From Haliotis rufescens (lineage: Eukaryota), in assembly GCF_023055435.1 (NCBI RefSeq), contig NW_025963902.1, positions 2,667,815 through 2,731,814 of the forward strand: a stretch of DNA of 64,000 bases. Reading direction: 5' to 3'. Shown in pieces: positions 7,546-62,690 of the stretch. The notes below the pieces were generated by a model. That model saw only the letters and a program-made list of their open reading frames with translations. It was not told where the DNA came from and did not search any database. Each line of letters starts with the position of its first letter. Within the stretch, counting starts at the first letter, position 1. The translations under genes and the position numbers were made by a program.

Positions 7546-9195
7546 GCTCATGACATAGTCGGAATCGTACAATGGACTCCGCTTTTAGCAGGGATTTTTA
7601 TTTAAAATGGAAAGAGTTTTGTCGCTTTTATTTAATTGGCATTGATTAGATGATTTAACAGGAAGACACAATGCTTGGTGATTTGTTTGTGGTGACGTTT
7701 CACGGTTACTTCTTCCCAATCATCAGGTGAATTCTTGAATGGACAAGAATTAGCCTTGAAACGCCCTAAGGGAAATAAAGGATTTCTTATCCATAAAAGG
7801 TTAGCTATCCGCAGCATAGTCTCTGTAGCGCCTAGTTGATTCATCATGAAAGTTTTATATTTCGACATGTTACATGCATGTTTACTGTGTATTCCAAAGT
7901 TTCGTGGACTTTATACTGTTGCACCAATATATGCTCCTTATGATTTACATTTTCTTCTCATCTATTACATTGCGTAACATAAATTATGTTATTTGTATCG
8001 TTGCCAGTGACGATGTTTTGATCAATATGTTGCATATTATCGCGTAATGTTGTAGATTTATATAAACTTTCCCACCAGAAATCGACCCAGGATCCCCCCA
8101 ATTGATATTCGGTGTTGGGGGTTGATGTGTGTTTAGGGAGTTGGGTATCTGACTTGGTTTGGATATGTGACGTGGTCTGTTTATAACAACAGCAATAGGA
8201 GTAAAAAACAGCAACAATGACAACTGAGGCAAGAACAAAACAATTAATTAATATAGAAATTAAGCAAGATTAGATGGTAACACATGGGTGTTTTTATGAT
8301 ACAAAGCATTAATTCGCATACACGGGTTAAATAATCACAAAGGTAAAGGGAACAATGTAGTTGGACCCAGTGTGACAACGGTAGCACTCAAGTATCGTAA
8401 TTCCTATACTTTAATACAGACTTACGACTGTCGCTCTGTGAAACGGTACCTGAACGCAGGAGCATTAAATGGCATCAGTGTTTTCCACTTGTGACAGTGA
8501 ATTCGAATAACTTTTGTAGCCCCCCAATCATGTTTCATGCGCATGGGGTATATTTAAACACTTAAGTTCCACAAATCCTCACAATGAGATATTAGTTGCT
8601 GGGTCCAGCAAATGTACCACCAAATCTCTGTCTCAAAGATTAACTACCATTGTTAATACAATTAAGCGAGGTATTTCTATATTTTCAAAGAAAATGTTTG
8701 ATACAAATAGAATTAATACCATGTTAATTTTCGTAATTCTTTGCAATCTCAGAAAAGACACCAGTTCAATTCTGTCAAAACATTTGATTTTTCACCACTA
8801 GTGACAAAAAGACTCTCAACACGACTGTCTGACGAGACGGAGGACTTCATGTCGAGCAATATTCCAGCAGCTCTAGCCTTTGTCAACATTTGACAACTTT
8901 TGAAGAACAGTCGACTATACTGTTTCTATGGAGATTTAAAAAAGCGCCATACAACTCTTGCACAAGAGATGTGTAACCAGGGTTACAACATTCAAGGCCC
9001 CAGAAAAAAAACTTTCAAAACGTTTTATGGAAGACATGTCGTATCAGTATCACAAATTATGTCTGAATGAATTCCCTATTTTGACTTGTACCATATATAC
9101 CTGTGTTTTTTAAGGTGAACAATTGACTTGCCCTTGCATGTGTTTGTTATGTATGCCCCTGGTGGGGAAGCTCACCTTTTCGCCAACCCTTTTCT

Positions 9196-9398
9196 TTATT
9201 GTTTAACGCCGCACTCCAGTATTTCAGCTATATGCCGGCGGTCTGTAAATAATCGAATCTGGACCAAACAATCCAGTGATTGACATCATGAGCATCGATC
9301 TACATATGAGGATACGATGATATACATGAACAAAGTCAGCGAGCCTGACCAGTCGATCCCGTTCGTCACCTCTAACGACAAGCATAGTCGCATCCTGA
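9196..9398 (-). mobile_element. SINE family C copy
   Basis: Matches the family-C body. Confidence 0.5.
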
Positions 9399-15648: not shown

Positions 15649-15834
15649 AGACAGCGGACCTTTTATGGTAGAATGGAGATAAACCTACTGTTTTGCAATT
15701 TGACGTAGTCCTCTCACTGGAGAGTAGACAGCGATCGGTTCCAAATTAAGATAAGAGGTATCTACTCGACAGTGAGACTACATCAAACTTCAAAACACAG
15801 TAGGTTCATCTCCTAAATGTCTCTTCCCTGGAGA

Positions 15835-16192
15835 CTGCCTCCGTGGTCTTGTGGTAGAGCGTCCGCCCGGAGAGCGGAAGGTCCAGGGTTCGATCCCCGG
15901 CCGTGTCATACCAAAAGACATTAAAAGATGGTACTTGTTGTTACCCTGTCTGGCGCTCGGCATTAAGGGGCTAAAACAAGGACTGGTCGGCTCGGAGTCA
16001 GTATACTGTGTCTGAGTGGGGTATTCATGTTAAACTGCGGCATGGTATCTCAGTGAGCTAGCACTATAAATCAGCATCAGTCCGGACTAGTACAAGCAGC
16101 CACACAAACACACACACGTACATGCACGTCGCTATATAAGTGCAATATTCTTGGACGCGACGTTAAAACCCATTTCACCTCACCTCACCTCT
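15835..16192 (+). mobile_element. SINE family D (tRNA-like head cgcctccgtggtctagtggtagagcgtccgcc..ggttcgatcccc; (cacct)n end), full copy
   Basis: About 360 bp with an internal (AC)n and a 3' end of cacctcacctcacctc. Confidence 0.6.
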
Positions 16193-16297
16193 TTCCTGGA
16201 AGGTTTCAGTTTAGTGTACAATTAGGTCGTAATGATGAAGGACAAATCTCACTTACAAACCGCTGACAGTATAATCATTATCGTACCATTTACTAAC

Positions 16298-16920: not shown

Positions 16921-17178
16921 TATTGTTGTTTTACGCTGCACTCAGCAATATTCCAGCTATATGACGGCGGTCTGTAAGTAATCGAGTCTGGACCAGACAA
17001 TCCAGTGATTAATATCATGAGCATCGATCCACGCAATATGGATCGAGGACAAGCCTCAACCAAGTCAGGGAGCCTGACCACCCGATCCCGTTAGTCGCCT
17101 TTTACGACAAGCATAGTCACCTTTCACGGCAAGCATGGGTTGCTGAAGACCTATTCTACCCCGGAATCTTCACGGGTT
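16921..17178 (-). mobile_element. SINE family C, full copy
   Basis: Matches the family-C body. Lies in TSR-gene intron 1. Confidence 0.55.
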
Positions 17179-22095: not shown

Positions 22096-23040
22096 CTACA
22101 ACGTCTTGGGTTGTGGTTGACGTCGGCGTAGCCGTCTATCCAATTCATCCCACTGGTGCTCTATCGGGTTCAAATCCGGGGATCTGGAGGTCCAGGGGAG
22201 AACCTTAACGTTGTTTTTGTGTAGACAGGCTCTTGTGATCCTTGCTGTATGCGGTCGAGCGTTGTCTTGCTGGAATACACCGTTGCCGTTGGCTGCAATT
22301 GGAAGGACGTGTGGTAGGAGAATTTCGTTGCTGTGTCGTTGAGTCGTAAGATTACTCTGGATATTGATTAAACCTGTCCTGCCATGATGAGAGATATCCG
22401 CCCACATCATAACGCTACCCCTACAAAACCTGTCCACTTCCTGTATGCAGTTTCCGGCGTAACGTTCTCCCTGACGTCTGTACACCCGTTCTCTACCATC
22501 CCCTCGACGAAGGAGAAATCGTCGCTGAACCAGACATCTCTCCATCGAAGTTGAGGCCATACCCTGTGTTGACGACATCAATGCAGTCGTTGGTGACGAT
22601 GTTGTGGACTCAATATGACGCATCGAACAGGACGTCTCGCTCGTAGACCTGCTGCTCTATAAGGTTTCTTACGGACTGCTCGGATATTCTGCGCAGTCCG
22701 GGTATTTGGGATGCGGTTGAAGTTGTTGTGATCGTCCTTTCACGTAGGTGGCGCAGTCGGATGTAGCGATCTTGGACGGGGGTGGTTACTCTTGGTCCTC
22801 CCGACCTTGGCCGATCACGTGTTAACCCATGCTGTTAAAACCGATCCCATAGCCTTGTGATGGTGCTGGGCGTTATATTGAAAACCTTGGCTACAGCTGA
22901 TCGTGATTCCCCTGCCTGTAAGCGGCCTATGACGTTGTTTCGTTGCACTTTTGTTAATCTTGGCATGTTGTTGAACTGTCACTGTTCGATCGACGCCGAT
23001 GCCAGGCAATAAAAAAACCCTGCACTTTAATACCGTTCAT
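22096..23040 (-). mobile_element. Tc1/mariner-family transposase relic (pseudogene)
   Basis: Track ORF 22096..22623(-) contains FQQDNARPHTAR ... WTSRSPDLNPIEHQWDELDRRL, the DD34E catalytic C-terminus of Tc1-like transposases. Upstream frames carry fragmented N-terminal DNA-binding region with frameshifts. Confidence 0.65.
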
Positions 23041-24262: not shown

Positions 24263-24569
24263 ATATGGTTTTCAATATAATGACTTGCTTCATCATTAAG
24301 TATTGGATGTCTTATAATCCCTATTGGTGTTGTACTTAACAATCGCAGCACCTTGCTTCATACTAGAAACATACATCCCATGTCATTATCGACTAGCTAT
24401 ATGCTTCGAAGCTGAATCATGAAGTTCGGAACAGCGATGATCTGTTGTAACCAAACCTCTCGTTGATATTAATATAGCATGAAAACAAACAAACCCTCAT
24501 CCCACGTCTCCAAAACCTCTTCATCCTTTCTGAGCCTTCTGTCCAACCCTTCCCTCCTCACCTGATACC

Positions 24570-26190
24570 ACTGAGACACCAATAAGACACCAATCAGAAA
24601 TAAATAAGACACCACTTAGACAACACTGAGACACCAATAAGATACCAATCAGAAAAAAATAAGACCCCACTAATACACCACTGAGACACTAATAAGAAAA
24701 CCAATCAGAAATAAATAAGACACCACTAAGACAACACTGAGACACCAATAAGATACCAATCAGAAATAAATAAGACACCACTAAGACACCACTGAGACAC
24801 CAATAAGAGACCAATCAGAAATAAATAAGACACCACTAAGACACCACTGAGACACCAATAAGATACCAATCAGAAATAAATAAGACACCACTAATACACC
24901 ACTGATACACTAATGAGAAACCAATCAGAAATAAATAAGACACCACTAAGACACCACTGAGAAATCAATAAGATACCAATCAGAAATAAATAAGACACCA
25001 CTAAGACACCACTAAGCCACCAATAAGATACCAATCAGAAATAAATAAGGCACCACTAAGATACCACTGAGACACCAATCAGATATAAATAAGACACCAC
25101 TAATACACCACTGAGACACTAATAAGAAACCAATCAGAAATAAATAAGACACCACTAAGACAACACTGAGACACTAATAAGAAACCAATCAGAAATAAAT
25201 AAGACACCACTGAGACACCATTGAGACACCAATAAGATACCAATCAGAAATAAATAAGACACCACTAATACACCACTGAGACACTAATAAAAGCCAATCA
25301 GAAATAAATAAGACACCACTAAGACACCACTGAGACACCAATAAGAGACCAATCAGAAATAAATAAGACACCACTAATACACCACTGAGACACTAATAAG
25401 AAACCAATCAGAAATAAATAAGACACCACTAAGACACCACCGAGACACCAATAAGAAACCAATCAGAAATAAATAAGACACCACTGAGACACCAATAAGA
25501 TACCAATCAGAAATAAATAAGACACCACTAAGACACCAATAAGATACCAATCAGATCTAAATAAGACACCACTGAGACACCAATAAGATACCAATCAGAA
25601 ATAAATAAGACACCACTAAGAAACCACTGAGACACCAATAAGAAACCAATCAGAAATAAATAAGACACCACTGAGACACCAATAAGATACCAATCAGAAA
25701 TAAATAAGACACCACTGAGAAACCAATAAGAGACCAATAAGATACCAATCAGAAATAAATAAGGCACCACTAAGACACCAATAAGAAACCAATCAGAAAT
25801 AAATAAGACACCACTGAGACACCAATAAGATACCAATCAGAAATAAATAAGACACCACTGAGACACCAATAAGAGACCAATAAGATACCAATCAGAAATA
25901 AATAAGACACCACTGAGACACCAATAAGAGACCAATAAGATACCAATCAGAAATAAATAAGACACCACTAAGACACCAATAAGAAACCAATCAGAAATAA
26001 ATAAGACACCACTGAGACACCAATAAGAGACCAATAAGATACCAATCAGAAATAAATAAGACACCACTGAGACACCAAAAAGAGACCAATAAGATACCAA
26101 TCAGAAATAAATAAGACACCACTAAGACACCAATAGAACGCCAATAAGACACCGCAAGGAAATAAATAAGACACCACTAAGACACCAATA
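24570..26190. repeat. Minisatellite, roughly 55-bp unit (cagaaataaataagacaccactaagacaccactgagacaccaataagataccaat), about 30 copies
   Basis: Visible periodicity. Track ORFs 25189..26100(-) are read-through of the repeat. Confidence 0.7.
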
Positions 26191-26864
26191 AGAAGCATAG
26201 GTTTGTCAAAGCCAGCTAAATAGTGAATCCAGCATTGGTATATTTATTAGAATATGTAAATTTTACATATTTATGAATCTGATACATTTGTCGGAAAGAT
26301 TTACCTTTCGTGTAAAACTGTGGTCGTCTGGTTGAAGGATACAGTTATTCCTGAGCGGTGATGCAGTTTCTTGAATGTGATTACGTTAATACACGACTCA
26401 GACGTTTTATCACGGAACTGTAATGCTCGCCAGCAATAAGCCACGCCATTTATGAAGTATGAATACAGGTTATCAATACTATTTCTATACTGCTGTAACT
26501 TCCCTGTCACTGGAAATATGGACCGGAATATAAACAATGCCTTTTATTCGTAAATGTCAATTGTTTAAATCCTCTCCTTTATACGCATCATGTAACGTTC
26601 ACTGTAACACGTTGCTGAATAGCCTTGTTAGTACCGAGATGTTCTTTTCATCATATATTGTGTTTTTATTTCCTTCTTTTAATTTAGTAGCTTATGAGTG
26701 TTTCATGGTTTCATGTTTTTTCGTTTTGACAATGTCTGTCAGATTCATCACACATGCATTGAATCCCCATACATCCACGAAGACCCCTTCCAAACAGTGC
26801 ATGCTCTGAGACGATAATTTGGTTGTACATTTGTTGCATATACCATAATAAAACAGTGAGTACC

Positions 26865-27050: not shown

Positions 27051-27214
27051 CTACAAATGTATATATATAACAATAATCGGGTGACCGGTCTCGGATTATG
27101 AAAATGCACACATAGGTCCACACAGTTACAGGAAGTGGGGTGAAATTGCGTTTAACGTTGCATTTATGATTAGTTCACTTATTTAGCGATGTTTTTCTGT
27201 GTTTATGTTGTTTA

Positions 27215-27417
27215 ACGCCGCAATCAGCAATCTTAATCTTGCAGCTATATGACGGTCGTCTGAAAATAATCGAGTCTGGACCAGACAATCCAGTTATTGG
27301 CACCATGAGCATCGACCCATGCAATTGGATACGATGACATGCATCAACTAAGTCAGCGAGCCCGACCAACCGATCCCGTTAGTCGCCTCTTTCGACAAGC
27401 ATGGGTTGCTGAAGACC
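27215..27417 (-). mobile_element. SINE family C copy
   Basis: Abuts a truncated SINE D at its 5' end. Confidence 0.5.
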
Positions 27418-27499: not shown

Positions 27500-27802
27500 T
27501 GTGTGTCTGTGTGTGTGTGTCTGTGTGCCTGTGTGTCTGTGTCTGTGTCTGTGTCTACTAGTCCGGACTTATAAAGGTTTTATAGTTCTAGCTCATTGTG
27601 ATACGTTACCGCAGTTTAACATGGATCCCCAACTCAGACACATATTTTGATTCCGAGAAGGCCAGTCCGTGTTGAATGTCATTAATGTCGAGCGCCAGGC
27701 TACAACTAGTAGCATTAACGTGTGTTTGGTATGACGCGGACGGGATCGAACCACGGACCTTCCACTCTCCGGGCAGACACTCTATGCATTAGACCACGGA
27801 GG
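27418..27802 (-). mobile_element. SINE family D copy (3'-truncated) with its internal (AC)n expanded into a (GT)n/(GTAT)n microsatellite
   Basis: Head rc at 27700..27802 and body 27550..27700 match family D. 27428..27560 is a GT-rich microsatellite at the position of the SINE-internal (AC)n. Confidence 0.5.
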
Positions 27803-29264
27803 CGGCCTCAAGCATGTATAGACGAGTACATACATGTACGTGACATTTCCCTATGATGTGATTAGAATCGATCAATCAACACTGATTTTAGTAGAGATTA
27901 TTATGGGAGGAGTCTTACCACTTTTAATTATACATATTAATACTTTTAGACCTCCGTGTACCCACACTGTCATGATACACTTATAGTGTTCTCTAAAGTA
28001 GGTTTGACGTTTTAATCCCTATTCTGAAACGTGCGGCCCCTATTGCCAGTACATGACATGTCACAGACGAGTGGGTCATGTGCTTTGACGCACTGCACAG
28101 TTCAGAGACCCTCGAGCTACATGTTCTGTTTGTGATTGATGTTGAGAATGACGACGTGTTCTAATCAATCACGATCGAAAACAGGTACTACTGATACTAC
28201 TGAACGAATGGAGCGACGTGTTGTCTATGGGCGACAGAAGTTCTTTTGTAATTCCCATGCATGACATGGTCAGAATAACTGAAGTAGCTTTTAGCAGCTC
28301 ACCATTAAAAGTACATGCATATTACACGTGTTGGCATATTAACTACTATGAATTATGAACAGTTTTCGCGAACACCGGGCATCATCACTATTTGATAATG
28401 ATTTATTAACAAATGCTTATGATAAAGTCAAATCGTACAATGGACTTTGCTTTTAGTAGAGATTTCTTATGATGATGGGATTTTGTGTGCCGCTTATTTA
28501 TACAATATGTATATTGAAGGTTTTTCTGCGAGCGCCTGACAAAGTGTTTTGGTCTGTGTGAGAGAAATGCCTTAGATTCCAACAAAATGTATCTTTTTAA
28601 CTTGGCTGATCCAAATCTCCACAGTGTATTTACATTCGAACATAAATTGTGAGGTGATTTAGTCATGAGGCTTTCACATATGTTTACAACAAAAGTACAA
28701 AATCTTGCTGGTGCATCAGTCAAGCACGTCCATCCACTTTTATGTGGTTATTAGTCACTGTGTAATTATTGAAATGCATTTCACCCCATGATCTAGTTTG
28801 TTTTAATTTATATCTGAGATGTTTCAGTACTATTCGTACAGTTGCGAGATTTAATGTTTCACTCACTTACTTCATATTACTATATACAGACAATAAATAC
28901 ATGGTGGACCTATCAATTTGAAAAGATAATGTCCTTTCTTTATTAAACAAATATCCACCATTTCCTTGCTTTGGATAAAACATTTCGACGAAGCACTTGT
29001 AAACTTGTAGCATTATGAATTAATTTAACAAGTGAGAAGAAATCATTGCCATTGCTCAAAGCATATGGGACAATTTATGTGAGACATGATGACAGATTTA
29101 ACTGCGCCTGCGTCACAGCATATCCTCGTAATAATCACTCATGGAGAAAACGAGGTTGACAAACACACATTGTGACGTCAAGAGTGCCTTTGACCAATCT
29201 GTGTCAGTTCCGGCCAGACTTAATGACATAACTGCCCTCTGGTCATCGCAACAAACGCCATTGT

Positions 29265-30469: not shown

Positions 30470-31200
30470 ACTGATCATACTCTGATTTATCACGAGTTAT
30501 ATCACGGAACGTGAGCTTGATGTGAACATATCACGGCGCGTCAGCTTCATGTGAACAGTATTTCAGTTATACCACGGCACGTCAGCTTGACGTGTGATGT
30601 GAACAGTATTTCAGTTAGCTTTCACGTCAGCTTGATGTGTGGTGTAAACAGTATTTCAGTTATACCACGGCACGGCACGTCAGTTTGACGGGTGATGTGA
30701 ACAGCATTTCAGTTATACCACGGCACGTCAGCTTGACGTGTGATGTGAACAGTATTTCAGTTATATTACGGCACGTCAGCTTGACATGTGATGTGAACAG
30801 TATTTCAGTTATATTACGGCACGTCAGCTTGACGTGTGGTGTAAACAGTATTTCAGTTATATTACGGCACGTCAGCTTGACGTGTGATGTGAACAGCATT
30901 TCAGTTATATTACGGCACGTCAGCTTGACGTGTGATGTGAACAGCATTTCAGTTATATTACGGCACGTCAGCTTGACGTGTGATGTGAACAGCATTTCAG
31001 TTATATTACGGCACGTCAGCTTGATGTATGATGTGAACAGTATTTCAGTTATATTACGGCACGTCAGCTTGATGTGTGGTGTGAACAGTATTTCAGTTAT
31101 ATCACGGCATGTGAGTTTGCTGTGAACAATATTTCAGCTATATTACGGCACGTCAGTTTGACGTGTGATGTGAACAGTATTTCATTTATATCACAGTGCG
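30470..31200. repeat. Minisatellite, 48-bp unit, about 14 copies, each unit containing the inverted repeat cacgtca-gct-tgacgtg
   Basis: ORFs 30637..31125(+) and 30660..30995(-) show 16-aa periodic peptides. Lies in gene 1 intron 2 immediately after exon 2. Confidence 0.7.
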
Positions 31201-31299
31201 TCAGCTTGATGTGAAATTTTGACCTCTCTTTAGTCTGTACAAAGTTAGATCCTTACAATAACGGACACTACAGTATCCCAATCGGTACAACGCTTGTTC

Positions 31300-34344: not shown

Positions 34345-34456
34345 ATATGTATGTGTGTATGTATGTATGTATGTATGTATGTATGTATGTATGTATGTAT
34401 GTATGTATGTATGTATGTATGTATGTATGTATGTATGTATGTATGTATGTATGTAT
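34345..34456. repeat. (ATGT)n microsatellite, 5' flank of hAT copy 1
   Basis: About 27 units. Continues at 36117..36230 on the other side of the hAT insertion. Confidence 0.8.
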
Positions 34457-36116
34457 TAGTGGTGTAACGATACGGCGATACAGTATTGTATCCCGATGCA
34501 CAGCCCACGATACGATGCATCGATTTGGAAAGCATGTATCGCGATACATACGATATTTTCATAACAGCAGTTATACCTACCGTATTTTCTTGAGTATAGT
34601 GCGCACTTTTTTCCTAAAAACACAGCTGTGTAGAAGGGGTTGCTCATTGTACACGAATTAATGAGTTTTGATGTTTTTCCCCCATGGAAAGACATTACCG
34701 TGAGCACGTAACCCCGGAAATACCATGTCAACAAATCCATACTGAAGTTCGCAAATTATTCATGTAATTACACTGTCTGGCTATAAAAAAAGTGTTCTTT
34801 GAATATCTGGACTCATGTTTGTAACTTATTTCATTAATTTTATTCAAAATTCCTTTTAATATTGTTATAATTAATTTCGGCGAAATCGTGTGTGAAGCGA
34901 TCGGAAGATCGCACAACTCACCGTTATTAACAGCAACCCCCGGTCAGATTACCGCTATTGACGCCTTGAAAGGAATTTTAGTTGACAGAGAATGGATACA
35001 TATATCATAAATGCCATACTTTGATTCGTCAAAAGTCAGATTTGTTTTTGTTGGACGATTATATGTCAACACATAATTCTCGCGATCACGCGATCACGTG
35101 CACGGGAGCCTTGACGGTGTCTGGTCAGACTGGTTCCATGTAAAAAATAATACCCGGCAATAGCGATCAGCTGCTTCGCTTAGGGTTATTATTATTTTAA
35201 ATATGTTTAGTAAAAGCTGCATCTAAATTAACAATATATTGGAATATATTATTCCTGATAAAAAAATAGTTTTAGATACAACTTTTGCCGATCCTTGCAT
35301 TAAAATACTGAAAAGTTCTATCATTGGGTGTGTCTTGCCCGAATCACCGGTAGATTCCAAGAAAACGTGTGTACATGTACAGCTGATTGCTGTGTCCGGC
35401 TTAGTTTACGAGAAAATACACAAGGTAATCTTAATCCCTGGATATAAAACAATGCCTAGCTGAACAAAAAATACAATTTAAACGGTAAATCAACATGTCT
35501 GGTGATTTTTTATCTCAAATTTCGAATTTGTACTAACGAAGTTTCTCATCACCCGTTCGTTTGCCGGACTTCGCTGAAGGGGTACGGTGTAATTTTTTTC
35601 TGCGCATAATATTCATATTTCTTTTTTTCCAAAATATTGAACCCGCTAGAGGGGCGTGCGCATTATACATCGGTGCGCACTATACTCAAGAAAATAGATG
35701 AAATACATGGGCGGATACAGCTTTTTTGAAAAGGGGGGGTGCACAATTAAGATCTATTTATTATTGTCTTTGGTGGTAATTTATACAGAAATAAAGATTT
35801 TTTTCTAAATAAAAAGGTGTGTGTGTGTTGGGGTGGGTGGGGGTGGGGTGTGTGTGCGCCCATGAAATACTTTAACAGTTTCAAAGCCAGTTTGTTGTTT
35901 CAGTAAAACATACTGTATTGCTGACAATTTACTATAACAGTAAATAAACACCTTATATCTTCTTCAACTGTACTTGTCACATATTTTAGATAGCAGAAAG
36001 ACAGCAACTTGGCTTAGCTTGTACCAGTAAACACTGTATCGTGATACGTATCGTATCGCGACCCCTGTATCGGGATACGTATCGTATCGCGACCCTCCCG
36101 TATCGTTACACCTCTA
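34457..36116 (+). mobile_element. Nonautonomous hAT-like DNA transposon, copy 1 (1660 bp)
   Basis: 19-bp TIRs TAGTGGTGTAACGATACGG ... CCGTATCGTTACACCTCTA. Subterminal GATACG-type repeats. Perfect 8-bp TSD gtatgtat. Inserted in an (ATGT)n microsatellite. No long ORF. Near-identical to copy 2. Confidence 0.7.
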
Positions 36117-36230
36117 GTATGTATGTATGTATGTATGTATGTATGTATGTATGTATGTATGTATGTATGTATGTATGTATGTATGTATGTATGTATGTAT
36201 GTATGTGTGTATGTATGTATGTATGTATGC
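36117..36230. repeat. (GTAT)n microsatellite, 3' flank of hAT copy 1
   Basis: About 27 units. Confidence 0.8.
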
Positions 36231-38294: not shown

Positions 38295-38371
38295 GTGAGT
38301 TGTGTGTTGAGGGGCGGGGTGAGGGATGGGGTTGTGTGTCTGGGGGTGGGGGGTGTGGGGGTGAGGATGCA

Positions 38372-39190
38372 GATGTAGGGACATCTTGATGCAAGATAGG
38401 ACTGAGGATGCAGATGTAGGGACATCTTGATGCAAGATAGGACTGAGGATGCAGATGTAGGGACATCTTGATGCAAGATAGGACTGAGGATGCAGATGTA
38501 GGGACATCTTGATGCAAGATAGGACTGAGGATGCAGATGTAGGGACATCTTGATGCAAGATATGACTGAGGATGCAGATGTAGGGACATCTTGATGCAAG
38601 ATAGGACTGAGGATGGAGGTGTAGGGACATCTTGATGCAAGATAGGACTGAGGATGCAGATGTAGGGACATCTTGATGCAAGATAGGACTGAGGATGCAG
38701 ATGTAGGGACATCTTGATGCAAGATAGGACTGAGGATGCAGATGTAGGGACATCTTGATGCAAGATAGGACTGAGGATGCAGATGTAGGGACATCTTGAT
38801 GCAAGATAGGACTGAGGATGCAGATGTAGGGACATCTTGATGCAAGATAGGACTGAGGATGCAGATGTAGGGACATCTTGATGCAAGATAGGACAGAGGA
38901 TGCAGATGTAGGGACATCTTGATGCAAGATATGACTGAGGATGCAGATGTAGGGACATCTTGATGCAAGATAGGACTGAGGATGGAGGTGTAGGGACATC
39001 TTGATGCAAGATATGACTGAGGATGCAGATGTAGGGACATCTTGATGCAAGATAGGACTGAGGATGCAGATGTAGGGACATCTTGATGCAAGATAGGACT
39101 GAGGATGCAGATGTAGGGACATCTTGATGCAAGATAGGACTGTGGATGCAGATGTAGGGACATCTTGATGCACGATAGGACTGAGGATGG
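38372..39190. repeat. Minisatellite, 41-bp unit (ggatgcagatgtagggacatcttgatgcaagataggactga), about 20 copies
   Basis: Three 330-aa minus-strand ORFs are read-through artefacts (41x3 = 123 nt, giving 41-aa periodicity). Starts about 75 bp after the gene 1 exon 3 donor, preceded by a G-rich stretch. Confidence 0.7.
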
Positions 39191-39654
39191 AGGTGTTGAA
39201 CCATCCATGTCCGTGTGATCTTATTTGTTGTATGAGCTATTAATGTTATCGTCCATACCAACATGGTTTAGAAATGTTGTTTTCTTATTTGAAAGCCGGA
39301 TTGGTAAACAAGCAAACACTTATTTATATAAATACCGCTCCTGGAAAACAGATCATCATAAGTACCTGTGGGGGTCGTTAAAAGAGCCCACACATTCGTT
39401 AAAAGTATGGCTATGTCGCGTCATTCTGTATACAACACAGCCCTGACAAGACAAACCTGTGTCTTAAAAAATAAGAAGACATTAATGCAACGATGAAACA
39501 CAACACGCAAAATCACAGATTCCGCGAGCAAATCCTCGTTTTAGGCATATCTTATACACTTAGTAATTATATGACCTGCTTTCTCCCGGCAACGGGAAGA
39601 AGTCGCTGAAGTTAATTTACATGTAGTATGTGACTGGGTGAATCAACAAGTGGA

Positions 39655-45202: not shown

Positions 45203-45560
45203 TGAGGTGAGGTGAGGTGAAATGGGGTTTAACGTCGCGTCCAAGATTATTGCACTTATATAGCGACGTGCACGTACGTGTGTGTGTTTGTGTGGCTGCT
45301 TGTACTAGTCCGGACTGATGCCGATTATAGTGCTAGCTCACTGAGATACCATGCCGCAGTTTAACACGAATACCCCACTCAGACACAGTATACTGACTCC
45401 AAGCCGACCAGTCCTTGTTTTAGCCCCTAAATGCCGAGCGCCAGACAGGGTAACAACAAGTACTATCTTTTAACGTCTTTTGGTATGACGCAGCCGGGGA
45501 TCGAACCCCGGACCTTCCGCTCTGCGGGCGGACGCTCTACCACTAGACCACGGAGGCGGT
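45203..45560 (-). mobile_element. SINE family D, full copy, about 230 bp upstream of the gene 2 start
   Basis: Reverse complement of the 15835 copy. Confidence 0.6.
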
Positions 45561-49899: not shown

Positions 49900-51050
49900 T
49901 TGACGTTGACGCACACGTCTCCTTATCGAGTCCTAGACGTGTTCAGTGGGGGACCATCTGGGCTCATTACTGGACATGGCTTTCTAGGGATGTTGTGCTG
50001 CTGGAGGTGAGCCTTGACGATTCGTGCACGGTGGGCATGGACGTTGACGTCCTGAAAGACAAAACGTCGACCCACACGTCTTGCAAACTGGACAACAAAT
50101 GGTGTCAGTATATTTTCCCGATAGTACTGTCCAGTGACCATTCCTTGCACGATATGAAGTGGAAGTGAATCGGAATTCATTTGAAAAGATGACACATGGC
50201 CAGCGACGATTACCCCAGTTTCGACGTGTAAACCATTGCCGTCTGTAGGCAATATGACGATTTGTAAGGGGCGACACAACACGTGGTCATCGAGCATGGA
50301 GACGAGCTGCATGTAGACGATTTCTAAGCGTGTGACCCGTAATTCGTACTCGAGTAGCGTGAAGAACGTTTGCAGAAATTTGATTCACCGTTTGAGCTCG
50401 ATTTCGAAAAGCCTGGACCGCCTCTGTGGCCTGGTGTTAGAACGTCCGCCCGGAGAGCGGAAGGTCTGGTGTTCGATCCTTGGCCGAGTCGTACTAAAAG
50501 ACGTTAAAAGATGGTACATGTTGTTACCCTGCCTGGCGCTAGGCATACAGCGGGTAAAACAAGGACTGGTTGGCTCGGAGTCAGTATACTGTGTCTGAGT
50601 GAGTTATTCATGATAAACTGTGGCATGGTATCTCAGTGGGCAAGCACTATACAATCGGCATTAGTCCGGACTAGTACAAGCAGCCGCACCCCAACACCCA
50701 CGTACACGCACATCGCTATATAAGTGCAACAATTTTAAACGCGATGTTAAACACCATTTCACGTCACCTCACCTCGCAGAGCCTGGTTTTGGACCAATCG
50801 ATAACATTGTCGTCAACATGGGACACCCTGAACGTGGTTGATCGTCGACATTTATGGTATGTTGATACCTTTTCCATGGTCCGCTATTCCCAGACTGTGA
50901 AACATTGAACGTATTGGCCACAGCACGCTGACGTCTGTCTGTTTCAAGCAAGTTAATTGCACGTAGGCGCTCTGCGCGTTGCAGACACCGCATCGCCAGT
51001 TCAAACACAAACAAAGAATGAAAATCAAGTAAATCACAAGTGTATGATAG
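49900..51050 (-). mobile_element. Tc1/mariner relic split by a SINE D insertion
   Basis: ORF 50769..51014(-) carries the N-terminal motif VDDQPRSGCPMLTT. ORF 49923..50312(-) carries degenerate C-terminal transposase similarity (FVFQDVNVHAHRARIVKAHL). SINE D at 50420..50777 sits between them. Confidence 0.45.
50420..50777 (+). mobile_element. SINE family D copy inserted in a Tc1 relic
   Basis: Matches family D full length. Confidence 0.55.
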
Positions 51051-51410: not shown

Positions 51411-51670
51411 GTGAAGATCCGGGGTAGAATAGTTCTTCAGCAACCCATGCTTGCCATAAAAGGCGACTATGCTTGTCGTAAGAGGCGACTAACGTGATCG
51501 GGTATCAGGCTCGCTGACTTGGCTGATGCATGTCATCGTATCCCAATTGCGTGGATCGATGCTCATGATATCAATCACTGAATTGTCTGGTCCAGACTCG
51601 ATTATTTACAGACCGCCGTCATATAGCTAGAATATTGCTGAGTGCGGCGTTAAACAACAAACAAACAAAC
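51411..51670 (+). mobile_element. SINE family C, full copy
   Basis: cgtgaagatccggggtagaatagttcttcagcaacccatgcttgcc ... (caaa)n. Confidence 0.55.
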
Positions 51671-52689
51671 ATTTCTTAATAGATGCCTTTGTATATTATT
51701 TGATGACTTGATGTCATTTTATTACAAACTGTATTGAATACGTGCATACTATTTGATGAAGACAATTTCAATTAGAAGATAGTGTTTAGGACTCAATGTG
51801 ATCATAATACTAATTGTCTTGAATGCATGTTTCCTACATGCTGATAATGCTCTTGACAGCATGCATACTATTTGTATACGAAAATCTTTTTATAATGGTG
51901 TTCCAGGGTCCACTGCTCCCGCTAACAGTGAAGTTGTGACGTTCCCGACGCTGTGGGGCAAACTAACGCTGTACATCCTGTAGGCAGCTGGTTCCGCCCT
52001 CATCTGCCTCGTGGTTTTGGAAAATATCCCTTCATGATGTGTACTAATGAACATAATAAAATATCTGAGTACGTTTTCGTGCTCAGCTTCAGCATGAAAT
52101 ACCTACGATGTCAAGTACGCTTTGGACCGTGCTCAACGCTGAGTTCGATATCAACAATGGCAGCTCACCTGCGTCAGACTCGACACACCACTTCCTTTTA
52201 TTTCTGCAAACAAAAGTTGTTCTCGTTGGACCACCTCCTGGACAAGACACACTTCCTCCGCCTGTGACCAACCCTTACATCGCCTTCTTGACTCGGGCAT
52301 GCTCTACGTTGCCATTGGAAATAATCAGACGACAACAGTCGGGTTGTTTTCCTACCTTTCTCGACGGAAGAGTTCAAAATTGCCGCTTGTGTCATAAACA
52401 AAGAGTACTTTGAGCATGCTCAAGCCGAGCGTGAGTTGTGCTCAGCTGAGTACAGACTCAAGATGTTTTATAACCTCTGCTTGAGTCCAAAACTCAACTG
52501 AGTACGAACATGAGCACGAGCATGAATTTGAGCATGAAACTGAGTTGAGCACGAATTGTTTTATAACCTCGGGGCCAGGTCTTCAACGTGACGTGATTTA
52601 CCTTGGCTAAGCCATCGCGCAATGTCTTTGAATATCTTGAATTTGATTGGTCATGTCACAGTAACACTCTTCTACGTGAATTCTATATA

Positions 52690-53490
52690 ATGTAGATACA
52701 TATAATGTAGATTAAATAATGTAGATACATATAATGTAGATATAAATAATGTATATATCAATAATTTAGATTCACATAATGTAGATACACATAATGTAGA
52801 TACATATATCATAGACACACATAATGTAGATACACATAACTCTAGATACACATAATGTAGATACACATAATGTAGATATGAAGAATGTTGATACACATAA
52901 TGTAGATATAAATAATGTAGATACACATAATTTAGATACACATAATGTAGATACATATATTATAGATACATATATTATAGATACACATAATTTAGATACA
53001 CATTATGTAGATATAAATAATGTAGATACACATAATGTAGATACATATATTATAGATACATATATTATAGATACACATAATTTAGATACACATTATGTAG
53101 ATATAAATAATGTAGATACACATAATTTAGATACACATAATGTAGATACACATAATGTAGATACACATAATGTAGATACACATAATGTAGATATGAATAA
53201 TGTAGATACACATAATGTAGATACACATAATGTAGATATGAATAATGTAGATACACATAATGTAGATATAAATAATGTAGATACACATAATTTAGATACA
53301 CATAATGTAGATACATATATTATAGATACATATATTATAGATACACATAATTTAGATACACATTATGTAGATATAAATAATGTAGATACACATAATTTAG
53401 ATACACATAATGTAGATACACTTAATGTAGATATGAATAATGTAGATACACATAATTTAGAGACATATAATGTAGATGCACATAAAGTTG
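52690..53490. repeat. Minisatellite, 15-bp unit (cacataatgtagata) with roughly 105-120-bp higher-order periodicity
   Basis: ORFs 52878..53522(+) and 53065..53316(-) show 5-aa periodic peptides (NVDTH / YLHYV). Confidence 0.7.
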
Positions 53491-53559
53491 TGAAAAATAC
53501 TTCTCAGAAAGGAATATCATAAGTGAGCCAGCACAACTTGGGCTATGTTCCCCTGTATG

Positions 53560-53935
53560 GGTAATTTCTACCGATAAGGATAAGTATGGATAATTTCTAC
53601 TGCTATGGATAAGTATGGATAGTTTCTACCGATCGATATGGATAAGTATGGATAATTTCTACCGATAAGGATAAGTATGGATAATTTCTACCGCTATGGA
53701 TAAGTATGGATAATTTCTACCGCTATAGATAAGTATGGATAATTTCTACCGCTATGGATAAGTATGATATTTTCTACCTATAAGGATAAAGTAATGCTAA
53801 TTTCTACCTATAAGGATAAAGTATGGATAATTTCTACCGATATGGATAAGTATGGATAATTTCTAACTAAAGGATAAAGTATGGAGACGTTCTACCGATA
53901 TGGAGAAGTATGGATAATTTCTACCGATGAAGGAA
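53560..53935. repeat. Minisatellite, roughly 29-bp unit (ggataagtatggataatttctaccgctat), about 13 copies
   Basis: Directly visible tandem copies with variants. Confidence 0.65.
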
Positions 53936-55878: not shown

Positions 55879-56044
55879 AGTGAGTGAGTGAGTATGGTTT
55901 TACGCCGCTTTTAGCAATATTCCAGCAATATCACGGCGGGGGACACCAGAAATGGGCTTCACACATTGTACCCATGTCGGGAATCGAACCCGTGTCTTCG
56001 GCGTGACGAGCGAACGCTTTAACCACTAGGCTACCCGACCGCCC
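55879..56044 (-). mobile_element. SINE family A, full copy
   Basis: Reverse complement of the 16298 copy with high identity. Confidence 0.6.
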
Positions 56045-60200: not shown

Positions 60201-60547
60201 CACTTTTAACACTCTCTCTATACAACATATACTATGTATTCAATGAGGATGAAGATAGTAACATGCTTTAATGAGTGAGTGAGTTACACGTCACATCGGC
60301 ATTATTTCAGCCATACACCGACCAATAAGTGATGTAGCCACTTCAACATAATTAATGTATATAAATGTACAATTAATCTGGACAGATGTTTCAGAGTGGA
60401 TATAGATTTAGGTGATAATGTTTCACGTAATTTACACGTTTGGACAGATATAACAATTCTTTGAGATATAAACAGCCATACCCACAGCAGTCTGTATATA
60501 GTTGTGTCTGTGACAGGCAAGCTAAACACGCCGTCACGAAGACATGC

Positions 60548-60655
60548 TCATTATATTAATCACTGGATTGTCTGGTCCAGACTCGATTATTTACAGACCG
60601 CCGTCATATAGCTGGAATATTGCTGAGTGCGGCGTTAAACAACAAACCAAAAAAA
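60548..60655 (+). mobile_element. SINE family C, 3' half
   Basis: atcactggattgtctggtccagactcgattatttacagaccgccgtcatatagctggaatattgctgagtgcggcgttaaacaac. Confidence 0.45.
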
Positions 60656-60668
60656 TCCTTCAGTATAC

Positions 60669-62690
60669 GACCGCCTCCGTGGTCTAGTGGTAGAGCATCC
60701 GCCCAGAGAGCGGCAGGTCCGGCGTTCAATCCCCGACCGCGACATACCAAACAACGTTAAAAAATGGTACTTGTTGTTACCCTGTCTGGCCCTCGGCATT
60801 AAGGGGCTAAAACAACGACTGGTCGGTCAGTAAACTGTGTCTGAGTGGAGTATTCATGTTAAACTGCGGCATGGTATCTAGAGGTGTAACGATACGGGAG
60901 GGTCGCGATACGATACGTATCCCGATACAGGGGTCGCGATACGATACGTATCACGATACAGTGTTTACTGGTACAAGCTAAGCCAAGTTGCTGTCTTTCT
61001 GCTATCTAAAATATGTGACAAGTACAGTTGAAGAAGATATAAGGTGTTTATTTACTGTTATAGTAAATTGTCAGCAATACAGTATGTTTTACTGAAACAA
61101 CAAACTGGCTTTGAAACTGTTAAAGTATTTCATGGGCGCACACACACCCCACCCCCACCCACCCCAACACACACACACCTTTCTATTTAGAAAAAAATCT
61201 TTATTTCTGTATAAATTACCACCAAAGACAATAATAAATAGATCTTAATTGTGCACCCCCCCTTTTCAAAAAAGCTGTATCCGCCCATGTATTTCATCTA
61301 TTTTCTTGAGTATAGTGCGCACCGATGTATAATGCGCACGCCCCTCTAGCGGGTTCAATATTTTGGAAAAAAAGAAATATGAATATTATGCGCAGAAAAA
61401 AATTACACCGTACCCCTTCAGCGAAGTCCGGCAAACGAACGGGTGATGAGAAACTTCGTTAGTACAAATTCGAAATTTGAGATAAAAAATCACCAGACAT
61501 GTTGATTTACCGTTTAAATTGTATTTTTTGTTCAGCTAGGCATTGTTTTATATCCAGGGATTAAGATTACCTTGTGTATTTTCTCGTAAACTAAGCCGGA
61601 CACAGCAATCAGCTGTACATGTACACACGTTTTCTTGGAATCTACCGGTGATTCGGGCAAGACACACCCAATGATATAACTTTACAGTATTTTAATGCAA
61701 GGATCGGCAAAAGTTGTATCTAAAACTATTTTTTTATCAGGAATAATATATTCCAATATATTGTTAATTTAGATGCAGCTTTTACTAAACATATTTAAAA
61801 TAATAATAACCCTAAGCGAAGCAGCTGATCGCTATTGCCGGGTATTATTTTTTACATGGAACCAGTCTGACCAGACACCGTTAAGGCTCCCGTGCACGTG
61901 ATCGCGTGATCGCGAGAATTATGTGTTGACATATAATCGTCCAACAAAAACAAATCTGACTTTTAACGAATCAAAGTATGGCATTTATGATATATGTATC
62001 CATTCTCTGTCAACTAAAATTCCTTTCAAGGCGTCAATAGCGGTAATCTGACCGGGGGTTGCTGTTAATAACGGTGAGTTGTGCGATCTTCCGATCGCTT
62101 CACACACGATTTCGCCGAAATTAATTATAACAATATTAAAAGGAATTTTGAATAAAATTAATGAAATAAGTTACAAACATGAGTCCAGATATTCAAAGAA
62201 CACTTTTTTTATAGCCAGACAGTGTAATTACATGAATAATTTGCGAACTTCAGTATGGATTTGTTGACATGGTATTTCCGGGGTTACGTGCTCACGGTAA
62301 TGTCTTTCCATGGGGGAAAAACATCAAAACTCATTAATTCGTGTACAATGAGCAACCCCTTCTACACAGCTGTGTTTTTTAGGAAAAAAGTGCGCACTAT
62401 ACTCAAGAAAATACGGTAGGTATAACTGCTGTTATGAAAATACATGCGATATATGCTTTCCAAATCGATGCATCGTATCGTGGGCTGTGCATCGGGATAC
62501 AATACTGTATCGCCGTATCGTTACACCACTAATGGTATCTCAGTGAGCTAGCACTATAAATCGACATCAGCTCGGACTAGTACAAGCAGCCACACACACG
62601 TGCATGCATGTCGCTATATAATTGCAATAATCTTGGACACGTCGTTAAACCCCATTTCACCACACCTCATCTCCTTCAGTATACTCTGCA
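60669..62690 (+). mobile_element. SINE family D copy disrupted by the hAT copy 2 insertion
   Basis: The two SINE halves join exactly across the hAT element plus its 8-bp TSD. Lies in gene 3 intron 1. Confidence 0.6.
60879..62531 (-). mobile_element. Nonautonomous hAT-like DNA transposon, copy 2 (1653 bp), inserted into a SINE D copy
   Basis: Same TIRs in inverse orientation. Perfect 8-bp TSD atggtatc. Internal sequence is near-identical to copy 1: track ORFs 34728..34916(-) and 62079..62267(+) translate identically. It splits the SINE D at 60669..62690. Confidence 0.7.

Follow-up and report, generated by a model that had tools for sequence, protein, structure and literature searches.

A probable non-autonomous hAT element, recently inserted at two sites in a 64-kb stretch of the Haliotis rufescens genome

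How did two nearly identical segments of DNA come to lie at two quite different sites in a single stretch of the Haliotis rufescens genome, and what kind of DNA are they? The stretch comprises 64,000 nucleotides of NCBI RefSeq assembly GCF_023055435.1 (contig NW_025963902.1, positions 2,667,815 to 2,731,814 of the forward strand); it is called the window here, and all positions are counted from its first letter. The two segments lie 24.8 kb apart in inverted orientation, one of them inside a microsatellite and the other inside a short interspersed nuclear element (SINE). The first part of the question can be answered plainly: both segments are independent insertions of one mobile element, not the arms of a segmental duplication. 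As to the second part, the ends of the element and the duplication made at its target make it a probable non-autonomous member of the hAT superfamily of class II (cut-and-paste) DNA transposons. It is thus of an ordinary and well-understood kind, and it leaves the current view of hAT elements unchallenged. The two copies are as follows.

34457-36116, forward strand: copy 1 of the non-autonomous hAT-like element, 1660 bp
60879-62531, reverse strand: copy 2, inverted relative to copy 1, 1653 bp

The two copies and their target sites

For comparison of the copies, 60879-62531 was reverse-complemented and aligned globally with 34457-36116. This alignment contains 1646 matches, 6 mismatches and 4 gap events, which amounts to 99.6% identity over 1652 aligned bases. 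The gap events are confined to two sites. At 34616 the copies differ by one A in a poly-A run; at 34542-34553, which corresponds to 62443-62446 in copy 2, there is a complex 8-bp difference, the sole sizeable one between the copies. The Jukes-Cantor distance of 0.0036 (0.36% divergence) would place the common template of the copies roughly 0.2-1.8 million years ago, a figure that is good to an order of magnitude and assumes a neutral rate of 1e-9 to 1e-8 per site per year, which may not be that of the host. A relative age can be stated firmly: at 99.6% identity the copies are far younger than the SINE family into which copy 2 inserted, whose other members are 74-87% identical to the SINE hosting copy 2.

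The similarity between the copies begins and ends exactly at their terminal inverted repeats (TIRs), and the flanks beyond are unrelated, being microsatellite at copy 1 and SINE at copy 2. A BLASTN search of the window with the element returned, beyond the two copies, low-complexity noise only. These observations bear on the possibility that a segmental duplication, or gene conversion between linked inverted copies, explains the identity of the two copies and that no recent transposition took place. The geometry of the locus, with inverted copies at this spacing, would permit conversion. However, each copy is bordered by its own flanking repeat, three paralogous empty sites are present for copy 2 (see below), and separate target duplications would not arise by conversion. 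The unrelated flanks, the separate duplications and the paralogous empty sites rule out a segmental duplication; gene conversion could have inflated the identity of the copies, but it cannot create insertions, and the chance that either process accounts for the locus is very remote. A first-pass annotation, made from the letters of the window, had described two near-identical copies of about 1.65 kb that were produced by recent transposition, and had named shared, extended flanking identity as the mark of a segmental duplication. The measured lengths, the alignment, the unrelated flanks and the paralogous empty site all bear out independent and recent insertion, and flanks of the duplicated kind were looked for and are absent.

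The sequences at the two points of insertion are listed here.

34346-34456, unstranded: left half of an (ATGT)n microsatellite, (TATG)27.8 units; its last 8 bp (34449-34456, GTATGTAT) form the nominal target-site duplication (TSD)
36117-36229, unstranded: right half of the (ATGT)n microsatellite, (GTAT)28.2 units; its first 8 bp (36117-36124, GTATGTAT) form the nominal TSD
60669-60878, forward strand: 5' part of the SINE hosting copy 2, 210 bp with the tRNA-like head and body; the final 8 bp (60871-60878, ATGGTATC) form the TSD
62532-62677, forward strand: second copy of the TSD (ATGGTATC, 62532-62539) and, after it, the rest of the interrupted SINE (3' part)

Copy 1 is flanked on both sides by GTATGTAT, within an array of period 4 that keeps its phase across the insertion. 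In such a repeat, duplications of 0, 4, 8 or 12 bp would look alike, and the flanks of copy 1 are therefore uninformative about the length of the duplication; the evidence for an 8-bp duplication has to come from copy 2. The microsatellite is split nearly in half by copy 1 (27.8 versus 28.2 units), and this near-equal split is taken as a coincidence with a chance of about 1-2%. A target duplication of about 111 bp, comprising the whole microsatellite, was considered for copy 1 and rejected: variant units are found near the outer end of each half-array, which argues that one array was split and that the halves are not a long direct duplication.

At copy 2 the target is not repetitive in this way, and its original state can be read from related sequences. 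Joining the flanks of copy 2 across a single 8-mer recreates the empty site, and this sequence aligns unbroken to the SINE copies at 15833-16195, 45204-45560 and 50416-50775, and all three of these paralogues show a single ATGGTATC (context CTGCGGCATGGTATCTCAGTGAGC; AAACTGCGGCATGGTATCTCAGTGAGCTAGC). Because the paralogues read through the site with one ATGGTATC, the pair that flanks copy 2 is proven to be a true 8-bp TSD, produced by an insertion about 210 bp into the SINE. A 9-bp TSD at copy 2 (AGATACCAT) was rejected, since the additional A belongs to the symmetric TIR, of which it is the final base, and has no match at copy 1. The placement of copy 1 in an (ATGT)n microsatellite and of copy 2 in a SINE, both proposed in the first-pass annotation, is thus confirmed, by the period-4 arrays on both sides of the one and by the rejoining of the flanks of the other to match three other SINE copies. 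The perfect 8-bp TSDs that it had assigned to both copies are upheld by the three uninterrupted paralogues at copy 2; at copy 1 the sequence is present, but it is uninformative within the microsatellite.

The family to which the interrupted SINE belongs has a length of about 350 bp and is represented in the window at least five times (15833-16195, 27539-27805, 45204-45560, 50416-50775 and 60669-62677). The family is called tRNA-derived because of an Rfam tRNA match (45486-45557) at the head of the 45.2-kb copy. A further Rfam tRNA match, at 55969-56040, lies outside the mapped SINE copies.

End structure and superfamily

Assignment of the element to a superfamily draws on its ends, whose parts are given below.

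34457-34475, forward strand: 5' TIR, TAGTGGTGTAACGATACGG, which opens with YARNG and holds the first CGATAC repeat in its inner part
36098-36116, reverse strand: 3' TIR, TAGAGGTGTAACGATACGG when read inward; one mismatch to the 5' TIR
60879-60897 and 62513-62531: 3' TIR and 5' TIR of copy 2, respectively
34457-34556, forward strand: 5' subterminal region, with 6 GATAC/GTATC cores that include the direct pair CGATACGGCGATAC and the palindromic pair GTATCGCGATAC
36034-36095, forward strand: 31-bp tandem duplication in the 3' subterminal region, 2 units, 97% identical

The TIRs are 19 bp long with 18 of the 19 bases complementary, and their outermost bases, TAGTG at the 5' end and TAGAG at the 3' end, both fit YARNG. 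A search of the window with the 19-bp pattern, allowing up to 3 mismatches, matches just the four expected ends, where 0.01 matches are expected by chance; looser TIR patterns revealed no solo ends or diverged relatives in the window. The termini as a whole form an imperfect inverted repeat across about 95 bp and are dense in short repeats. The 6 GATAC/GTATC cores of the first 100 bp are joined by 9 in the last 100 bp, and there are 3 in the 1460-bp interior. Judged by the rest of the window, from which the expectation was derived, the terminal 200 bp should hold 0.51 cores rather than 15 (Poisson P about 2e-17); the hexamers CGATAC/GTATCG number 12, against 0.06 expected. The orientation of the hexamers is mirrored, in that most of those at the 5' end read CGATAC and all of those at the 3' end read GTATCG. 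These counts agree with the earlier description of 19-bp TIRs beginning with TAG, common to both copies, and of subterminal repeats rich in GATACG.

The subterminal repeats also form palindromic pairs, GTATCGCGATAC at the 5' end and GTATCGTGATAC at the 3' end. Each unit of the 31-bp tandem duplication contains GTATCG-N-GATAC together with two further (G)TATCG repeats, and this doubling of a palindromic repeat block accounts for the strong hairpin propensity of the 3' subterminal region (z = -4.0). In copy 2 the 5' pair GTATCGCGATAC is missing, having been lost through the complex 8-bp indel described above. Should a transposase bind at this pair, its loss may have reduced the mobility of copy 2.

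An 8-bp TSD in combination with YARNG termini is the structural signature of hAT elements (PMC3014272), and TIRs, subterminal repeats and an 8-bp TSD have been given as the defining features of the superfamily (PMC4890040). The element in the window has an 8-bp TSD, YARNG ends and dense subterminal repeats, and the presence of all three structural features makes it probable that this is a non-autonomous hAT transposon. In molluscs, hAT elements rank with the non-autonomous elements derived from them among the most common DNA transposons (PMC10294476). MITEs (miniature inverted-repeat transposable elements) measure a few hundred bp and are present in high copy number; at 1660 and 1653 bp the present copies are larger than this, and two of them are found in 64 kb. 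Given a length of 1.65 kb, "non-autonomous element" is a better description than MITE or "miniature".

Several points weigh against the hAT assignment. An 8-bp TSD has been established at a single site, and duplications of this length are produced by a few other superfamilies too. Neither the element, compared with Pfam in six frames, nor the open reading frames (ORFs) of at least 70 aa in the window yielded a hAT transposase or any piece of one; the scan of the window covered 157 such ORFs that passed a low-complexity filter, and returned only a weak TSP_1 match and the DDE_3 domain of a Tc1-like remnant. With no transposase to go by, the superfamily is read from the structure of the ends alone. 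The target sites are of mixed character as well. The Ac/Hermes-type target consensus nTnnnnAn (PMC2803484) is fitted by GTATGTAT at both positions and by ATGGTATC at only one of the two, so that 3 of 4 informative positions agree overall, two sites being too small a number to settle the matter; as to the Buster family, its target consensus nnnTAnnn (PMC3517528) is not seen, there being no TA at positions 4-5 in GTATGTAT or in ATGGTATC/GATACCAT. Finally, only two copies are known, and neither further copies nor a partner turned up in the metagenome, prokaryote, viral and gene-call collections that were searched. In particular, scans with the TIR gave 0 matches in prokaryotic genomes and 0 in the viral collection, an exact look-up of nine ORFs of the element and one Tc1-like ORF among gene calls on public assemblies found none of them, and no candidate came from a search for homologues of the 99-aa frame that spans the 5' end. 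Literal searches of the literature for the TIR and for the inner repeat described below returned unrelated primers only, and the GATAC subterminal repeat was likewise not found there. Two metagenome matches to the TIR (L001 and L002) were set aside as chance, similarity being lost right after the 19-mer.

With a single informative TSD, and with no transposase to tie the element to any superfamily, it might be a non-autonomous member of another superfamily whose TSDs are about 8 bp long, such as P, Mutator-like elements (MULEs), Merlin, Zisupton or Novosib. P elements have an 8-bp TSD and TIRs of about 31 bp that start with CANRG; MULE TIRs are usually long and accompanied by 9-11-bp TSDs, and Merlin ends start with GG. 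Compared with the P superfamily, the element agrees in TSD length, but its TIR of 19 bp starts with T, and TAGTG fails at the R position. Both ends instead fit YARNG, which together with the 8-bp TSD is the hAT signature (PMC3014272), and short TIRs followed by dense, short subterminal repeats are a hAT architecture (PMC4890040, PMC10368747). The ends also resemble those of Tol2 and Tgf2 at 10 of 12 positions (PMC4818426, PMC4890040). Membership of one of these other superfamilies is, on balance, quite unlikely.

The resemblance to Tol2 of medaka and Tgf2 of goldfish concerns the first 12 bases of the 3' end, TAGAGGTGTAAC versus CAGAGGTGTAAA; the ends are CAGAGGTGTAAAG in Tol2 (PMC4818426) and CAGAGGTGTAAAAG in Tgf2 (PMC4890040). 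The fish elements likewise have short TIRs, then many short subterminal repeats, and 8-bp TSDs (PMC4818426, PMC4890040). However, they are autonomous vertebrate elements of 4.7 kb, their quoted ends are AAGTACTT-like subterminally rather than built on GATAC, and no likeness was seen past the first 12 bases. The resemblance is best treated as a lead, not as a test. Hermes of the housefly offers a parallel of another sort. Its BED zinc fingers bind to short repeats of the subterminal regions, among them a quasi-palindromic pair that adjoins the TIR (PMC10368747), and it integrates across 8 bp with a preference for nTnnnnAn (PMC10368747, PMC2803484). The palindromic pairs GTATCGCGATAC and GTATCGTGATAC are reminiscent of this arrangement, although the repeat sequence is different and, as read from sequence alone, the pairs are putative binding sites.

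Among non-autonomous relatives, the closest counterparts in general form are Ds (of Ac) and the hobo-N and hAT-N elements of Anolis carolinensis, which share with the present element 8-bp TSDs, YARNG termini, a kilobase size and the absence of a transposase of their own (PMC3014272). The non-autonomous hAT families of Anolis carolinensis are 1.3-3.4 kb long and show very low divergence between copies; such families share only their ends with autonomous elements, the interiors being unrelated to transposase genes and sometimes consisting of captured DNA or other transposable elements (PMC3014272). In the present case only two copies have been seen, and the searches described above turned up no autonomous partner. 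Mar, a non-coding hAT derivative of Drosophila, has TIRs of about 11 bp (CAG(G/A)GG...) and conserved 8-bp TSDs (PMC3517528), and the latter have been read as a sign of recent mobilisation (PMC3517528). Mar, however, is described as a MITE, a short class, and belongs to the Buster family with its nnnTAnnn TSD (PMC3517528), whereas the element here is 1.65 kb long and its TSDs do not fit that consensus.

The interior and its inverted repeat

If the ends are those of a hAT element, what do they carry? The longest stop-to-stop frame in the element is 99 aa. Comparison of its six frames with Pfam domains at E<=10 gave a sole match, to CRAL_TRIO_2, which at E=0.055 is below the cut-off for that family and was judged to be chance. 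The element was therefore correctly described at the outset as being without coding capacity. Rfam likewise contains no RNA family that matches inside the element at gathering score; mir-297-like Rfam matches (E<=1) were dismissed as microsatellite-driven, being located in the flanks and far below threshold.

The interior does have a structure of its own, which the first-pass annotation did not mention.

34583-34606, forward strand: left arm of a perfect 24-bp inverted repeat, TATTTTCTTGAGTATAGTGCGCAC
35673-35696, reverse strand: right arm of the same repeat; the arms enclose 1066 bp
61299-61322 and 62390-62413: arms of the internal inverted repeat in copy 2

Measured to the outside of its arms, this module spans 34583-35696 (1114 bp), and the enclosed 1066 bp make up about two thirds of the element. 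The perfect 24-bp repeat is kept in both copies, and none is expected by chance. One explanation is that the element is a composite, in which a short hAT element of about 546 bp took up filler DNA or a second inverted-repeat element, and the whole unit now moves by means of the hAT ends. Such a history would be a refinement of the non-autonomous hAT assignment and is compatible with it. It is favoured by the perfect repeat that bounds 1.1 kb in both copies, by the outermost TA of each arm, which could be a TA target duplication, and by the filler DNA with other transposable elements that has been documented in non-autonomous hAT and hobo families (PMC3014272). On the other side, the module is not surrounded by an unambiguous TSD: any flanking duplication would be limited to the TA, which is palindromic and may belong to the repeat itself. 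The similarity of the arms stops at 24 bp. Moreover, no free-standing copy of the 1114-bp module is present in the window. The sole external match to the inner repeat, a 22-mer found in a Prevotella metagenome-assembled genome during the scan of prokaryotic genomes, has no flanking similarity and is attributed to chance. A composite origin is accordingly put forward only tentatively, as a possibility that falls somewhat short of even. In broader terms, that is, whether it is a nested second element or captured filler, the 1.1-kb interior is probably passenger DNA rather than the remnant of a transposase gene.

Between the right arm and the 3' subterminal repeats, a (GT)n patch with runs of GGGG lies at 35817-35861 (GGTGTGTGTGTGTTGGGGTGGGTGGGGGTGGGGTGTGTGTG). 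It has a G-quadruplex-like composition and is identical in both copies.

A proposed route of mobilisation, and the surrounding window

For a non-autonomous hAT element, a route to the present arrangement may be sketched from characterised hAT systems. A hAT transposase supplied by an autonomous relative elsewhere in the genome would bind the subterminal repeats, much as the BED domain of Hermes does (PMC10368747), and pair the two ends. The transposase would excise the element and re-insert it across an 8-bp staggered cut, and repair of the cut would make the TSD. The number of copies could rise if the donor site were restored from the sister chromatid, or if the element moved from replicated to unreplicated DNA. 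Short-range re-insertion is typical of hAT elements, and the 24.8-kb spacing of the copies would fit local re-insertion of this kind.

A more far-reaching possibility would combine these features: an invertebrate hAT lineage of low copy number, active at present and with Tol2-like ends, that moves over short distances and takes a second inverted-repeat element along as its passenger. In this full form the proposal is unlikely. If it were true, the locus would be a case of one transposon spreading another, and the inverted copies, 99.6% identical and 24.8 kb apart, would be a substrate for inversion or for alternative transposition of the segment between them.

More modest consequences follow from the two insertions themselves. 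Two clean and recent insertions, one with a proven 8-bp duplication, would mean that a source of hAT transposase was active in this genome not long ago. The exact boundaries of the repeat family are of use for masking in annotation, and an insertion could serve as a marker of insertion polymorphism; the family may already be in the repeat library of the species. If the structure is composite, it also shows on a small scale how other sequences come to be taken up and spread by non-autonomous elements.

The remainder of the window is rich in other repeats. Apart from the SINE family, a separate repeat of about 100 bp occurs at 620-712, 2061-2162, 9195-9295, 16923-17024, 27188-27298, 51559-51669 and 60544-60655. 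A Tc1/mariner-like remnant lies on the reverse strand at 22099-22656 (Pfam DDE_3, E=6e-7), and two others, at 13.6-14.0 kb (forward strand) and 49.9-50.4 kb (reverse strand), were recognised by eye from motifs such as QQDNARPH...PDLNPIEH.

The sole recognisable exons in the window are four cysteine-rich exons on the reverse strand, between 12395 and 19219, three of which contain a TSP1-like W..W..C motif. The clearest of them, the TSP1-like first exon at 18.7-19.2 kb (reverse strand; about 19.1 kb), starts with a signal peptide; the match to Pfam TSP_1 is only weak (E=0.0016), and a word-index search of a collection of 5.8 billion proteins returned no homologue of this first exon.

Minisatellite arrays are found at 24567-26194 (units of 55/44 bp), 30549-31215 (48 bp), 38362-39196 (41 bp), 52687-53485 (15 bp) and 53555-53934 (29 bp). 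The 41-bp array consists of 20 copies at 97% identity, and the array at 24-26 kb exhibits a strong strand skew, with a GC skew of -0.30 and an AT skew of +0.43.

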